Shown here: positions 1-11,728 of the stretch, piece by piece
Position numbering within the stretch: the stretch's first letter is position 1
Layout: every line of letters begins with the position of its first letter
DNA from: Candidatus Enterousia sp.
GTDB taxonomy: Bacteria; Pseudomonadota; Alphaproteobacteria; Rs-D84
Length of the DNA stretch: 58,592 nucleotides
Assembly (NCBI GenBank): GCA_045530935.1
Contig: JAZSDC010000022.1
Location: 1 to 58,592 of the forward strand
Reading direction: 5' to 3'
The notes under the pieces: model-generated
Told to the model about the DNA's origin: nothing
The model's input: the letters and a program-made list of their open reading frames with translations, nothing else
The model's database searches: none
Program-made: the position numbers and the translations under genes

Positions 1-2
1 TT

Positions 3-329
3 GCAAAAGATATAAGCGATTGTGAATGGCCAAAGCCTAAGTTGCCATCGGGTTTGTGCTGTAACGGTTGTGAAACGCATTGCAAACTTTCTATGCAGTT
101 AAATGTAAGAAGTGGGGATTTTATGCCCGAAAATGGAAGGCAGAACCTTTATGTTAGACCTGTAATATATGCGGGTGGTGTGGAAGCGTATTATTGTGGT
201 TTGGCGGCTGCTAACACTGCAACAATTCTTGAAACAGAAACGATGATTGAAATATGGAATGCAGATCGTTTGTATCAAGACGCTTTGGCGTGGTGTCGTG
301 CAACTTGCAAGCATAGCAAGATGCGTTAA
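3..329 (+). CDS. small cysteine-rich protein, paralog 1 of 3 (5' end runs off the window)
   Basis: Frame is open from nt 3 (..AKDISDCEWPKPKLPSGLCCNGCETHCKLS...AWCRATCKHSKMR*). The TTG at 42 is unlikely to be the start because paralogs 2 and 3 begin about 25 aa before the CC motif. Shares CCxGCxxxC(K/R)LS and a C-terminal CRxxC(K/A)(H/K)SK(M/V)R with 388..660 and 720..1079. Confidence 0.6.
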   Translation, partial: AKDISDCEWPKPKLPSGLCCNGCETHCKLSMQLNVRSGDFMPENGRQNLYVRPVIYAGGVEAYYCGLAAANTATILETETMIEIWNADRLYQDALAWCRATCKHSKMR

Positions 330-358
330 TTTATAAATTTGCGAGGCGAGGGTGTAAA
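327..358. repeat. conserved post-gene spacer taatttataaatttgcgaggcgagggtgtaaa (partial copy of one arm of the 1095..1184 palindromic element)
   Basis: Nearly identical to 658..690. The core ttgcgagg-gag-gtgtaa resembles the right arm ctttgcgagggagtgtgaa of 1095..1184. Confidence 0.6.
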
Positions 359-387
359 TATTTTGTATTTAACAAAAGGGGTATCGT

Positions 388-660
388 ATGTCGTATGAGT
401 ATAAGTTTAATAAAAATTTTTTCTGCCCAAATATATGGCGTAGTGAACCGAGGGCAAAGGAACTTACATCCGATGAATGTTGTGATGGTTGTGAGGAACA
501 CTGTAAGTTAAGTGTTAATTCCGCTTTTTGGTACGGCCATGTTGAGATGATGGCAAATGATAAGATGGTCTTGACTGTAAAGGGCAGCGGGAGAGAAAAC
601 GATTTAAAAGCACTACTTATGTATTGCAGAAAAAGCTGTGCAAAAAGCAAGATGCGGTAA
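388..660 (+). CDS. small cysteine-rich protein, paralog 2 of 3
   Basis: ATG preceded by aaaagggg SD. Starts MSYEYKF; contains CCDGCEEHCKLS and ends YCRKSCAKSKMR*. No signal peptide visible. Confidence 0.6.
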   Translation: MSYEYKFNKNFFCPNIWRSEPRAKELTSDECCDGCEEHCKLSVNSAFWYGHVEMMANDKMVLTVKGSGRENDLKALLMYCRKSCAKSKMR

Positions 661-690
661 TTTATAAATTTGCGGAGGCGAGGGTGTAAA
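658..690. repeat. conserved post-gene spacer (second copy)
   Basis: taatttataaatttgcggaggcgagggtgtaaa; differs from 327..358 by one extra g. Confidence 0.6.
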
Positions 691-719
691 GGTCTAACAA
701 TTGAAAAAAAGGATGTGTT

Positions 720-1079
720 ATGTCGTATGAACGTAATTATAAAAAAGGCAAGAAAGATGTTCTTGATCGTTATGAAAAAAGGCCTGAGTTGGCATCAGGT
801 TTGTGTTGTGATGGGTGTGATAAATTTTGCCGATTGTCTTTGACTTTGCAAGTTAAAGAAACACCTTTTAAACCAAGAAGTGGGAATCAAAAGTTTCTGG
901 TTAAACCTGTTATGTTTGTTGGAGATAAGAAGTTGTATGATGTTGCTGCATATGCGAGTCGTTGTGTTTGCTATCCAAGCGGTATTGAGATTGATTTTTT
1001 TTCTCGTAATGCAGAAGCACTTTATCAAACCGCCTTGGCATGGTGCAGAGTGACTTGCAAGCACAGCAAAGTGCGGTAA
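720..1079 (+). CDS. small cysteine-rich protein, paralog 3 of 3
   Basis: ATG preceded by aaaggatg SD. Starts MSYERNY; contains SGLCCDGCDKFCRLS and ends ALAWCRVTCKHSKVR*. Aligns along its length with paralog 1. Confidence 0.65.
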   Translation: MSYERNYKKGKKDVLDRYEKRPELASGLCCDGCDKFCRLSLTLQVKETPFKPRSGNQKFLVKPVMFVGDKKLYDVAAYASRCVCYPSGIEIDFFSRNAEALYQTALAWCRVTCKHSKVR

Positions 1080-1094
1080 TGCGGAATACATAGG

Positions 1095-1184
1095 ACTGGA
1101 TTGCCACGGATACGCCTCGCAATGACAAAGGTGTTTAAGAACCCTGTCTTTGCGAGGGAGTGTGAACGACCGTAGCAATCCAGT
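1095..1184. repeat. imperfect palindromic REP/MITE-like element
   Basis: Left arm is actggattgccacgg..cctcgcaatgaca. The reverse complement of the right arm is actggattgctacgg..cctcgcaaagaca. It belongs to the ggattgc...cgcaatgac type of dispersed hairpin repeat seen in several intracellular and host-associated bacteria. Confidence 0.6.
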
Positions 1185-9031: not shown

Positions 9032-10765
9032 GTGAGAAAGATAGTGGAAAAATCCATGTTGGGGAAAGCATGGGTGATGGAAAATGATGTTTTTGATGGT
9101 AGTGGGGATTTAGTAAAAAATATTTTGTGTGGCCGTGGAATCGAAAGTGATGCAGATATAAAATTGTTCTTGAACCCCAGTATAAAGGATTATATGCCTG
9201 ACCCTTTTGTGTTGAATGATATGGGGGTGGCTGTTGATATAATTGCCGATGCTGTACAGAATGGTGAAAAAATAGCAATATATGGCGATTACGATGTTGA
9301 TGGTATCACTTCAACTGCAATATTTGTTAAGTTCCTGCGTGCAGTTGGTGCAGATGTTGTTTGGCATTTGCCAACACGCGAAGGTGAAGGATATGGTTTA
9401 AATAATCAGGCGATTGATGAAATTGCAGCCCAGGGGGGGCGGTTGCTGGTTACTGTTGATTGTGGAATATCTGGGGTTGAAGAAGTTGAATATGCGCATA
9501 AATGTGGTTTAAAGGTTGTTGTAACAGATCATCACTCGCCAGATAGTGTTTTGCCATGTGCGGATGCAATCGTTAACCCAAAATGTGATGCTGATACGTC
9601 AGGATTGACTTATTTGGCGGGTGTTGGTGTTGCTTTTTTGACGTTGGTGGCTTTGAACCGCGAATTAAAAAAACGTGGTTTGGGGTTGGATAATTCAGAA
9701 TTGATGAACAGTATGGACCTGGTCGCATTGGGGACGATTTGTGATACGATGCCATTGGTTGGTTTGAATCGCGCGTTTGTTGCAACTGGGTTAAAAGTTT
9801 TGGGATTGCAGAAAAATTTGGGGTTGCGCGTATTGATGGATGTTGCGGGGATAAAAAAACCATCGGTGTATGCGGCTGGTTTTGCATTGGGCCCACGCTT
9901 AAACGCAGCGGGAAGATTGGATTCTGCAGGGCCTGCATTGGATTTGTTGTTGACAGATAATCCATTGATTGCGCATGATTTGGCAGATAAATTGCACAAA
10001 ATGAATCAAGAGCGTATTGATATACAAAATGCGATTATGTTGCGTGCGTGCGAAATGGCAGAAAAATGCTGTGCGTCAGGTAAATGCAGTTTGTTCGTTT
10101 GTGGCGATAATTGGCATGGTGGTGTAATGGGAATTATCGCAGGGCGCTTGAAGGATAAATATAATTTACCTTCGTGTGTGGCGACACGCAGCGATGGAAT
10201 GGTTAATGGGTCTGGGCGCTCAATCGCAGGAATTGATTTAGGTAAAATTATTCATGATGCATTGGCGTTGGGATTGGTTAGTGAAGGTGGCGGACATGCG
10301 GCAGCGGCTGGTTTCTCGCTGCCAGTTGAAAACGAAGATGCATTTTGCAAGTTTTTAGAAAACGCAGTGAACGAGCAATTAAATGGTACTCGCCCCAGTC
10401 CAGAAGTTATGGTTGATGCAGAAATTGATGCAGGGGGCGCAAATATGCGATTGGTAAAACAGTTGTCTGCATTAGAACCTTTTGGCCAGGGAAACCCAGA
10501 GCCGGTGTTGGTATTGCGTGGTGGGCAATTGCGGCATGCGTCAATTATGGGAACAGGTGGGGCGCATTTGCGTGGGACATTGGCGACCAGTGCAGGAACA
10601 CAATTGTCTTTTGTTGGTTTTAATTTAGTTGGAACGCCCGTTGGTGATTTTTTACTAGACGATGCGAATACAAATACTAAAATAATGATGCTGGGGCGAT
10701 TGAAACAGAATGAATATAATGGTCGGGTTAGTGCGCAGTTCTTCTTAGAAGATATTGCTATATAA
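9032..10765 (+). CDS. recJ: single-stranded-DNA-specific exonuclease RecJ
   Basis: GTG start. DHH motifs (IAIYGDYDVDGITS, VVVTDHH), DHHA1 GGGHAAAAG, and an OB-fold tail. Confidence 0.9.
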   Translation: MRKIVEKSMLGKAWVMENDVFDGSGDLVKNILCGRGIESDADIKLFLNPSIKDYMPDPFVLNDMGVAVDIIADAVQNGEKIAIYGDYDVDGITSTAIFVKFLRAVGADVVWHLPTREGEGYGLNNQAIDEIAAQGGRLLVTVDCGISGVEEVEYAHKCGLKVVVTDHHSPDSVLPCADAIVNPKCDADTSGLTYLAGVGVAFLTLVALNRELKKRGLGLDNSELMNSMDLVALGTICDTMPLVGLNRAFVATGLKVLGLQKNLGLRVLMDVAGIKKPSVYAAGFALGPRLNAAGRLDSAGPALDLLLTDNPLIAHDLADKLHKMNQERIDIQNAIMLRACEMAEKCCASGKCSLFVCGDNWHGGVMGIIAGRLKDKYNLPSCVATRSDGMVNGSGRSIAGIDLGKIIHDALALGLVSEGGGHAAAAGFSLPVENEDAFCKFLENAVNEQLNGTRPSPEVMVDAEIDAGGANMRLVKQLSALEPFGQGNPEPVLVLRGGQLRHASIMGTGGAHLRGTLATSAGTQLSFVGFNLVGTPVGDFLLDDANTNTKIMMLGRLKQNEYNGRVSAQFFLEDIAI

Positions 10766-10777
10766 AAATGGTTTGGT

Positions 10778-11728
10778 ATGGAACAGAAGATACAAGAATT
10801 TTTTGAACGTTTAGAAAATGCAAAATCTGTCGCGATTATGGGACATAAAAACCCTGATGGCGATTCGTTATGCAGCATATTGGCATTGGCGCATTTGATA
10901 GAGGATGCGTACGGTATAACACCTGTGTGTACGTATGATGGAAATATTCCTGATGCGCTGGATTACGTGCCAATGCGTTCTCGTATAAAATATTTTGAAC
11001 GTGTCGATACGCAGATGCAGTATGATTTGGCAATTGTTATGGATTATGGAAATCCAGCATTGATTGGTGGACCGCGCCCAATTGTTGATAATGCTAAATT
11101 CGTAGTTGAAATAGATCATCATAAAAATGATAACCATATTGGTACGTTGTGTATAAATGATGAAAATGCCCCAGCGACAGCAGTGATTGTGTATAAAATA
11201 ATGCGGCAGGGTGGGCTGTATATGGATTCGCGTACGGCGGATTTGTTGGCGTTGGGTATTTTGACAGATACGGGTAACTTTAAATTTGTACGTAATGGTG
11301 AAGTTTTGCGTATTATGGCGGATTTGGTTGATTCGGGGGTTAATATTCGTGAATTGATTGAATTGATGCAAAATAAACCACGCAAGGCAGTTCAATTGGA
11401 AGCGCGCACAACAGCGAATGCAGAATTTTTTTATCATGGGCGTTTGGCTTTGGCAACAATTCCTAAGAAGGATTATAAATACCTGGATGGACGTGGAGAG
11501 ATGGTGTTAAGTTTGTTGGGGCAAATCCAAGGGGTTGATTACGTTGTGTTATTAAAGGAACAAAAACCAGAACAGATTGGTGTTTCAATCCGCAGTCGCA
11601 GAAAACCAATCGACCATATTGCTGTGGCATTGGGTGGTGGCGGCCATGAAAGGGCGGCGGGTGCAATTATTAGGGATTCCTTGGAAAATGCGCGTGCACA
11701 GGTTTTGACCTTATTTAAGGAGGAGTAG
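10778..11728 (+). CDS. nrnA: DHH/DHHA1 phosphoesterase (NrnA-like oligoribonuclease/pAp phosphatase)
   Basis: GHKNPDGDSLCS, EIDHHKND and GGGGHERAAGA motifs. Confidence 0.8.
   Translation: MEQKIQEFFERLENAKSVAIMGHKNPDGDSLCSILALAHLIEDAYGITPVCTYDGNIPDALDYVPMRSRIKYFERVDTQMQYDLAIVMDYGNPALIGGPRPIVDNAKFVVEIDHHKNDNHIGTLCINDENAPATAVIVYKIMRQGGLYMDSRTADLLALGILTDTGNFKFVRNGEVLRIMADLVDSGVNIRELIELMQNKPRKAVQLEARTTANAEFFYHGRLALATIPKKDYKYLDGRGEMVLSLLGQIQGVDYVVLLKEQKPEQIGVSIRSRRKPIDHIAVALGGGGHERAAGAIIRDSLENARAQVLTLFKEE

Follow-up and report, generated by a model that had tools for sequence, protein, structure and literature searches.

What do three small cysteine-rich proteins of no recognisable family do in a bacterium of the animal hindgut, and why do related genomes carry different sets of them at the same site? 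The question is raised by the first 1,079 nucleotides (nt) of contig JAZSDC010000022.1 (GenBank assembly GCA_045530935.1) from Candidatus (Ca.) Enterousia sp.; the window, the whole stretch of DNA that was analysed, comprises 58,592 nt of this contig. Ca. Enterousia are uncultured members of the order Rs-D84 with genomes of <1 Mb, lacking the tricarboxylic acid cycle, respiration and standard transporters for sugars, amino acids and peptides; they are thought to depend on partner organisms, and no means by which they interact with partners, competitors or phages is known (PMC12306168). Comparison of the locus with its relatives, all of which derive from metagenome assemblies with no isolate among them, showed that the three genes are cassettes that are gained, lost and replaced within species and between species. 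This pattern is the evolutionary signature of proteins engaging a fast-changing outside partner. The reading favoured here, with a probability of roughly 40%, is that the proteins are cytosolic specificity-determining binders, acting as immunity-like neutralisers or sensors against phage proteins or incoming toxins.

The three genes are intact paralogs on the same strand, and the tandem array described in the original prediction, made from the letters of this DNA, is confirmed (Table 1). The first codes from residue 8 of a 115-aa protein, has its stop codon at 327-329 and is 94% identical to the full-length relative P0002; the second is a short form without strands β1-β2 and part of the variable region. 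The MSYE start was confirmed in copies 2 and 3, and the full-length relatives of copy 1 begin with MAYE. All three copies carry the N-proximal motif CCxGCxxxC(K/R)LS (CCNGCETHC at approximately nt 57-83 in cassette 1; CCDGCDKFC, residues 29-37, nt 804-830, in cassette 3) and the C-terminal motif (W/Y)CRxxC(K/A)(H/K)SK(M/V)R* (WCRVTCKHSKVR, residues 108-119, nt 1041-1076, in cassette 3), and the description of conserved ends around a variable core is accurate. The copies are 40-47% identical pairwise, and the family profile scores relatives at E values of 1e-13 to 1e-58, a likeness far beyond chance. A signal peptide or transmembrane segment is absent, with hydrophilic N termini and a maximum Kyte-Doolittle 19-residue mean of ≤1.16. 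A Shine-Dalgarno site of its own had been assigned to each gene, which holds for copies 2 and 3; the start of copy 1 lies beyond the window edge. The spacer following the first two copies had been given as the same 32 nt and in fact measures 29 nt (copy 1) and 30 nt (copy 2), with one indel. By chance, 0.02 matches would be expected for this repeat.

Database searches set the limits of the family. A word-indexed search covering 5.8 billion proteins returned 17 clusters, every one unnamed or "hypothetical", and an HMMER profile search covering 1.84 billion representative proteins returned 25 matches, including the spurious repeat protein P0036, which leaves about 24 family clusters. All matching genomes are metagenome-assembled genomes (MAGs) of ruminant origin (colon, caecum or rectum) that are labelled either Candidatus Enterousia or "Alphaproteobacteria bacterium", and among the loci no other organism name occurs; a scan of JGI metagenomes added just four loci. 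The family is confined to one Ca. Enterousia subclade. The exact protein of cassette 3 is indexed in 46 blocks of the assembly collection and was carried by all 23 contigs read. The absence of a recognisable family, claimed from the letters, stands after comparison with Pfam, NCBIfam, PHROGs, PADLOC, PDB sequences and PDB folds. Pfam gave scattered chance matches only, with single sequences and with all 31 members of the family alignment, and none to the described immunity (Imm) families; NCBIfam and the PDB sequence profile search gave no real match. Each PHROGs match came from one member only (E of 0.006 or weaker), PADLOC-DB defence profiles were matched by chance by single members only (E of 0.0018 or weaker), the IMG/VR viral contigs searched held no relative, and Foldseek found no fold match in the PDB for the AlphaFold model. 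The protein family is new, and its predicted fold probably so; its evolutionary behaviour resembles that of known conflict loci.

The cassettes occupy one site. The usual order is a trmB-like gene, an acetyltransferase gene, gltX, hlyIII (HlyIII/PAQR), one to four cassettes, an optional GIY-YIG gene and thrS, followed 3′ of thrS by a 47-aa open reading frame (ORF), a SPOR-domain gene and tatA. Wherever a locus includes upstream DNA, the gap between the hlyIII stop codon and the first cassette, which has its own Shine-Dalgarno site, measures 12-60 nt (usually 12-18 nt); in locus L006 a 355-aa ORF lies between the two genes. An array running far upstream of the window edge, as had been considered, is therefore improbable, and comparison with related loci indicates that hlyIII most likely lies upstream of copy 1. 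The same-species contigs that show the array start carry one or three genes, and one short contig shows four. A supposed second locus for the 131-aa type was rejected, as it is the same hlyIII-thrS site, and a MAG with two loci is probably a mix of two strains.

Clustering of the cassette proteins at 65% identity gave 17 clusters, one of which is a short remnant, so that there are about 16 types, which differ by 45-75% from each other. The arrays, some of which may be seen only in part on short contigs, hold one gene (T5, T6, T4, T10, T11, T14, T16 or T9, or B, A or C alone), two genes (A-B, A-T6, T9-A, A-T15 and T17-T4), three genes (T8-B-C, T7-B-C and, in the window, A-B-C) or four genes (T8-T7-B-C, in L009). 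Replacement is seen within the species of the window. The flanks of its contigs are 98% identical to each other and 98-99% identical to those of the window, and the arrays between them are C only (L012), T8-B-C (L036 and L039), T7-B-C (L037, L038 and L040), T8-T7-B-C and A-B-C (the window). Types B and C differ by 0.3-1.5% from those of the window, whereas slot 1 and its spacer differ by 12-36%. Loci L036 and L037 agree at 98% as far as nt 11 of the slot-1 gene and once more over its final ~40 nt and beyond; between these points they hold unrelated types, which places the breakpoints inside the gene ends. One contig from an RNA library carries C ahead of B. Assemblies of single DNA metagenomes are interrupted at the borders of cassettes, and the depth climbs stepwise (in X3, A has a depth of ~3.7, B of 13.6, C of 28 and the flank of at least 30), which fits a presence/absence polymorphism within the population. 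The positions of the breakpoints inside the coding ends point to homologous rather than site-specific recombination, and the exchange probably runs via the conserved gene ends (the initial ~11 nt and the final ~40 nt) and the spacer common to the cassettes.

Cassettes are also shared between species. As proteins the flanking genes are conserved, with HlyIII 90-97% identical to its L008 counterpart and ThrS 82-100% identical to that of the window, but they are strongly diverged at synonymous sites (synonymous distance, dS, of 0.5-1.7 for nearly all pairs); cassettes of one type lie much closer together. In thrS, a dS of about 1.3 separates the window from L008 or L020; for type B, the same comparisons give 0.14 and 0.11 with a nonsynonymous distance, dN, of ≤0.005, and the type B counterparts in L008, L009 and L020 show a dN of ~0 and a dS of 0.02-0.14. 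Type A of the window has a dS of 0.02 and 0.05 to L014 and L020, respectively. Nucleotide identity to the window over the A-B region is 95% for L020 and 91% for L008, against 81-82% for thrS, and cassette A is 98% identical to that of L014. The simplest reading of these distances is recent transfer of cassettes between species by homologous recombination that would be anchored in hlyIII, the gene ends or the spacer. Given the flank dS, part of the distance between types may be ordinary divergence. Rapid divergence of one ortholog was considered as the whole explanation and rejected, as the cassettes are closer than their flanks and are replaced within a species.

The genes are real and evolve under constraint. 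Within types, the dN/dS ratio (ω) is ~0-0.05 for type B (0-1 nonsynonymous vs. 1-6 synonymous differences), about 0.05 for type E, 0.07-0.22 for type I and mostly 0.3-0.6 for types A and D. The full-length family ORFs in 45 loci and the window are all intact, the sole remnant being a C-terminal fragment of 23-26 aa in L034 (at 6545) and L035 (at 6536) that lies 3′ of an intact cassette and matches the conserved C terminus only (…ALAWCRHTCKNSKSR); this fragment is the remnant of a deleted cassette. Four transcriptomic or metatranscriptomic libraries yielded contigs in which each of the three genes is covered at a depth similar to that of thrS; this supports expression modestly. It is very improbable that the genes are functionless, decaying duplicates or purely selfish recombining sequence: the family is an orphan, is dispensable in related lineages and has left a remnant in two loci, but purifying selection within types is strong, the full-length copies are intact and the genes are present in RNA libraries. 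Low dN/dS within types and intact full-length copies likewise do not fit the decaying pseudogenes that had been named as an outcome to look for.

Amino-acid change in type A appears to be concentrated in one patch. Comparison of nine non-independent type-A alleles gave a dN/dS of 2.38 (dN 0.28, dS 0.12) for the 27 codons of alignment columns 67-93, which cover strands 3-5 (~nt 180-257; residues 67-92 in cassette 1), vs. 0.31, 0.32 and 0.11 for the other three segments. Fisher tests of the segment against the rest gave p = 0.002-0.08 across six representative pairs, suggestive of a localised excess of amino-acid change. In a natural variant of copy 1, found in RNA and DNA runs, nt 110-245 are swapped for 137 other bases.

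The predicted structure places this patch on a scaffold with conserved ends. Residue conservation was read from an alignment of 31 diverse members, numbered as in copy 3. Only C30, C33, C37 and C113 are invariant across the family, and C109, M1, Y3, G32, S40, G68, A105, L106, T112, S116 and K117 are nearly so. The six invariant cysteines of the original prediction hold among the three window copies and their own subclade, and not family-wide, where four are invariant; the first cysteine of the CC pair is limited to a subclade. The proteins are 90-131 aa long with 6-11 cysteines (5-10% of residues), and the net charge varies from -2.5 to +10.5 across the types, a spread that speaks against a generic role in nucleic-acid binding. 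The AlphaFold2 model from the 31-sequence alignment (m5df02e0abb12; predicted local distance difference test score 85.9, predicted template modelling score 0.75) shows a short N-terminal helix, a cysteine knuckle leading into strand 1, five antiparallel strands (residues 37-93) and a C-terminal helix (residues 98-112) with a CxxxC pair and a basic tail at its end. Taken as ligands, the two cysteine groups (CxxCxxxC ... CxxxC, ~70 residues apart) suggest a single metal centre clasping the conserved N- and C-terminal segments, and a metal-binding fold is plausible. Each gene would encode a soluble protein of ~10-15 kDa in which the N-proximal knuckle and the pair of the C-terminal helix hold one metal centre, most likely Zn(Cys)4, with an iron-sulfur cluster as the alternative. 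This clasp would tie the two conserved termini over the five-stranded sheet, and the hypervariable outer strands (residues ~67-93) would form the recognition surface.

The arrangement has partial parallels among metal-binding proteins. Zinc ribbons and treble clefs have a recognisable fold in which two knuckles, or one knuckle and the first turn of a helix, supply four ligands within ~30-40 residues. Zinc-knuckle and treble-clef modules are the nearest analogues in chemical terms. The family resembles zinc-knuckle, treble-clef and SEC-C proteins in its CxxC knuckle, its helix cysteine and its basic cysteine-containing C-terminal tail, and differs in that the second pair, CxxxC, lies ~70 residues away with a five-stranded sheet inserted, and in having no sequence or fold match to them. 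Metallothioneins are built of Cys-x-Cys and Cys-Cys clusters. They have at least ~15-30% cysteine and no regular secondary structure, unlike the cassettes, with their lower cysteine count and predicted β-sheet and helix. The enzymes GluRS, ThrRS and PAQR are zinc enzymes. An improbable alternative is that the proteins serve metal homeostasis, as buffers or chaperones of zinc or iron-sulfur clusters, their dosage adjusted by tandem amplification in the manner of metallothionein arrays. The conserved set of four to five cysteines, the variable copy number, the zinc enzymes flanking the locus and the SUF cluster 4 kb downstream speak for it. However, cysteine makes up only 5-10% of the residues, the arrays consist of different types rather than identical amplified copies, and dosage predicts neither localised amino-acid change nor allele replacement.

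The surroundings of the cassettes bear on two further explanations. The annotated neighbours within 10 kb are gltX, hlyIII, thrS, SPOR, tatA, dksA, trx, suf genes and others; several ORFs in this range have no Pfam match. No maturase, dedicated exporter, toxin or recombinase is found among the Pfam-annotated genes within 10 kb of the tabulated loci. SCIFF precursors are ~45 aa long and adjoin a radical S-adenosylmethionine (SAM) maturase; precursors of the SCIFF/ranthipeptide kind (TIGR03973-like) generally have ~40-60 aa, with a leader and a cysteine-rich core. The cassettes share with SCIFF and ranthipeptide precursors that they are small, cysteine-rich and sometimes in several copies, and the proposal of precursor peptides, more exactly of ribosomally synthesised and post-translationally modified peptides of these kinds, draws on such tandem paralogs with conserved and variable segments. 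It is scarcely tenable: the proteins measure 90-131 aa and are confidently predicted to be globular, the same neighbours include neither a maturase (radical-SAM or other) nor a protease or ATP-binding-cassette exporter (dedicated transporter), NCBIfam gives no match, and the cysteines stand at both ends rather than in one core.

The second explanation concerns hlyIII, to which even the most divergent members, P0035 (26% identity) and P0028, are adjacent; in the P0028 loci, yajC-secDF lies downstream in place of thrS. PAQR proteins carry a zinc site. The cassettes could thus be cytosolic accessory subunits or regulators of the TrhA-like PAQR/HlyIII protein, for instance in metal delivery or gating, with the variation in type and copy number secondary. 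The constant adjacency and the zinc site count in favour of this. However, two related lineages (L042 and L044) with HlyIII 80% and 88% identical to that of L008 have the same synteny without the family, with only a terminator and the thrS leader between hlyIII and thrS. Moreover, the ω of HlyIII is ~0.03, in contrast to the difference between types and the patch ω of >1, and the copy number varies from 1 to 4 within a species. A subunit role is unlikely on this evidence. As two lineages have gltX-hlyIII-thrS without cassettes, the family is an accessory that was inserted in one subclade; the role of an obligate partner of HlyIII was considered and dropped because the same site is empty of the family in these lineages. 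Transport of a queuosine precursor by HlyIII (PMC11130926) was considered as a link, and nothing supports it here. No terminator-like site was seen between hlyIII and the cassettes. Since thrS has its own promoter-like site and leader, the cassettes are probably part of the upstream transcript, as the 3′ tail of gltX-hlyIII, with the palindrome after the last one.

Within-species replacement, cross-species sharing and a patch dN/dS of ~2.4 fit the "diversifying effector or immunity-type" half of the original prediction; its other half, precursor peptides, does not fit. On the binder reading, the targets would be variants of a fast-evolving protein of foreign origin (from a phage, for example, or a toxin made by a competitor), with a different variant recognised or neutralised by each cassette type, and frequency-dependent selection would keep the repertoire diverse. 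Several points weigh against this reading. Within the patch, ω >1 is non-significant in five of six pairs (binomial p of 0.017 in one and 0.11-0.21 in the others), and recombination of short diverged tracts could mimic part of the signal. Chimeric metagenome assembly could inflate the sharing across species; the pattern recurs in independent assemblies from different hosts. The RNA-library contigs carry no strand information, and DNA carry-over is possible. Metal binding is read from the cysteine pattern alone. The tabulated loci contain, within 10 kb, neither a target nor a partner toxin or defence gene, and the sole constant neighbour, hlyIII, could mean a housekeeping link instead.

A neighbouring idea is that the cassettes act outside the cell, as non-classically exported or bacteriocin-like effectors with the basic tail (CKHSKxR) or MxYE as signal and the core acting on other cells. 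Conserved termini around a varying core, polymorphism with horizontal exchange, and the presumed dependence of Enterousia on partner organisms (PMC12306168) agree with such a role. It is nevertheless doubtful: there is no signal peptide, the annotated neighbours include no exporter or immunity gene, the conserved termini hold the invariant cysteines and are more simply structural, and stabilisation by disulfides would be unlikely in the reducing gut.

Comparison with known systems places the binder reading among conflict loci. The nearest analogues are orphan immunity arrays in behaviour and integron cassettes in layout. Orphan immunity arrays are known from the orphan cdiA-CT/cdiI modules of contact-dependent inhibition and from the acquired interbacterial defence islands of gut Bacteroidales. 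The cassettes resemble them as tandem small cytosolic proteins at one site, presumably of differing specificity, that vary between strains, have short conserved cassette borders favouring recombination and are exchanged between co-resident species. Unlike these arrays, they form one new family with no linked toxin, recombinase, secretion system or Imm match, and lie between housekeeping genes of a genome of <1 Mb; with no toxin in the flanks and no Imm-family match, they lack the marks of a polymorphic-toxin immunity gene (a place directly downstream of a cognate toxin domain, or membership in a described Imm family), but they may be orphan immunity genes. The likeness to integron cassettes lies in promoterless short ORFs with a palindrome-related element, stacked at one site and probably read from upstream. 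Integrons have an IntI tyrosine recombinase and an attI site beside the array. However, no integrase or recombinase is found among the Pfam-annotated neighbours within 10 kb in the tabulated loci, and, unlike integron attC sites, the spacers match the right arm of the palindrome only, with the full palindrome after the last cassette only (a comparison made with no formal attC model). RexAB is a two-part abortive infection system of a cytosolic sensor and a membrane channel. Here too, the gene of a conserved polytopic membrane protein directly adjoins that of a soluble, variable one; there is no homology to RexAB, and HlyIII is a broadly conserved housekeeping-type gene that occurs without cassettes. 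TrhA is linked to membrane potential (PMC9017321). A bolder version, rather improbable, is that a metal-clasped hypervariable module arms HlyIII/PAQR as the effector of a RexAB-like sensor-plus-channel defence, or neutralises toxins, with specificities passed between Enterousia species by recombination at the gene ends.

The swapping of variants within and between species is suggestive of a role in a biological arms race. Almost everything near the locus is housekeeping, and a dedicated site of one to four members is a strong pointer to what Enterousia fight or recognise. The family offers a probable new fold with an unusual ligand arrangement, in which a CxxCxxxC knuckle is clasped to a CxxxC helix. 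It is also a compact, trackable case of integrase-free cassette exchange that could be followed in existing metagenomes.

Table 1. Features of the cassette array in the window.
Feature	Position (nt)	Strand	Remark
Cassette 1 (type A/T2)	3-329	+	Cut by window edge; in frame from nt 3
Post-cassette spacer, copy 1	330-358	+	TTTATAAATTTGCGAGGCGAGGGTGTAAA; 29 nt, repeated
Shine-Dalgarno AAGGGG of cassette 2	376-381	+	
Cassette 2 (type B/T1)	388-660	+	90 aa, short form
Post-cassette spacer, copy 2	661-690	+	30 nt, one inserted G
Shine-Dalgarno AAGGAT of cassette 3	709-714	+	
Cassette 3 (type C/T3)	720-1079	+	119 aa
Long imperfect palindrome	1095-1184		90 nt; follows copy 3, closes array

The palindrome that closes the array, whose right arm the spacer resembles, folds as RNA with a ΔG of -47 kcal/mol (nt 1077-1215; z = -5.4) and is a probable transcript end or stabiliser. 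In other strains, direct copies of ~120 nt flank a gene for a stand-alone GIY-YIG nuclease of 102 aa. Two such copies are seen in L036 (10358-10477 and 10784-10906) and L037, and those in L001 lie at 10357-10466 and 10834-10961. The window represents the "empty" state with a single copy, L012 has a truncated form of it, and partial copies occur elsewhere in relatives (L020, at 12081, 12275 and 14389). These arrangements suggest a mobile GIY-YIG/palindrome element, with the palindrome as target or flank of the gene, and this element could also promote local recombination. The nuclease was rejected as a functional partner of the cassettes, as many cassette loci, the window included, lack its gene.

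The hlyIII-thrS gap of a more distant relative (L046, 4132-4578) holds an unrelated cysteine-rich protein of 148 aa with a signal peptide, so that small accessory genes seem to land in this gap repeatedly. Other differences lie upstream. In the species of the window (L036-L040), three tandem GNAT acetyltransferase genes stand 5′ of gltX, where others have one or none, and an extra 244-aa ORF with no Pfam match lies between gltX and hlyIII, overlapping both. The GltX proteins of L001-L031 fall into two main classes relative to that of L008, ~74-77% identical (530-531 aa) or 80-94% identical (525 aa), and both occur among loci whose adjacent HlyIII proteins are all 90-97% identical. The two classes hint at recombination or allele replacement reaching beyond the cassettes.

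The leader region of thrS (1207-1376) contains an 18-codon ORF (1243-1299, MMMFGYFFTTTTTTPLGV*) with six consecutive threonine codons, preceded by a promoter-like site (TTGATT-17-TATCAT) and with small hairpins following at 1282-1295 and ~1307-1321. An alignment of five loci (the window, L012, L008, L005 and L025) shows no variation in the threonine run or in the hairpin after it, and a lineage without cassettes has this leader ORF too (L044, 3805-3861). The region has no match in Rfam and looks like a threonine-codon leader-peptide attenuator of threonyl-tRNA synthetase. The starts of the cassettes (aaggNNNNNNttATGTCGTATGA; 388-398 and 720-730) resemble the start of thrS at 1377-1387 (aaggattttattATGTCTTATCC; ATGTCGTATGAT in L025), which may be chance, or a trace of the first cassette's origin or of recombination at the site. 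Over the whole 58.6 kb, the GC skew is positive in every 2-kb interval (0.03-0.37), consistent with one replichore whose genes mostly lie on the leading strand.

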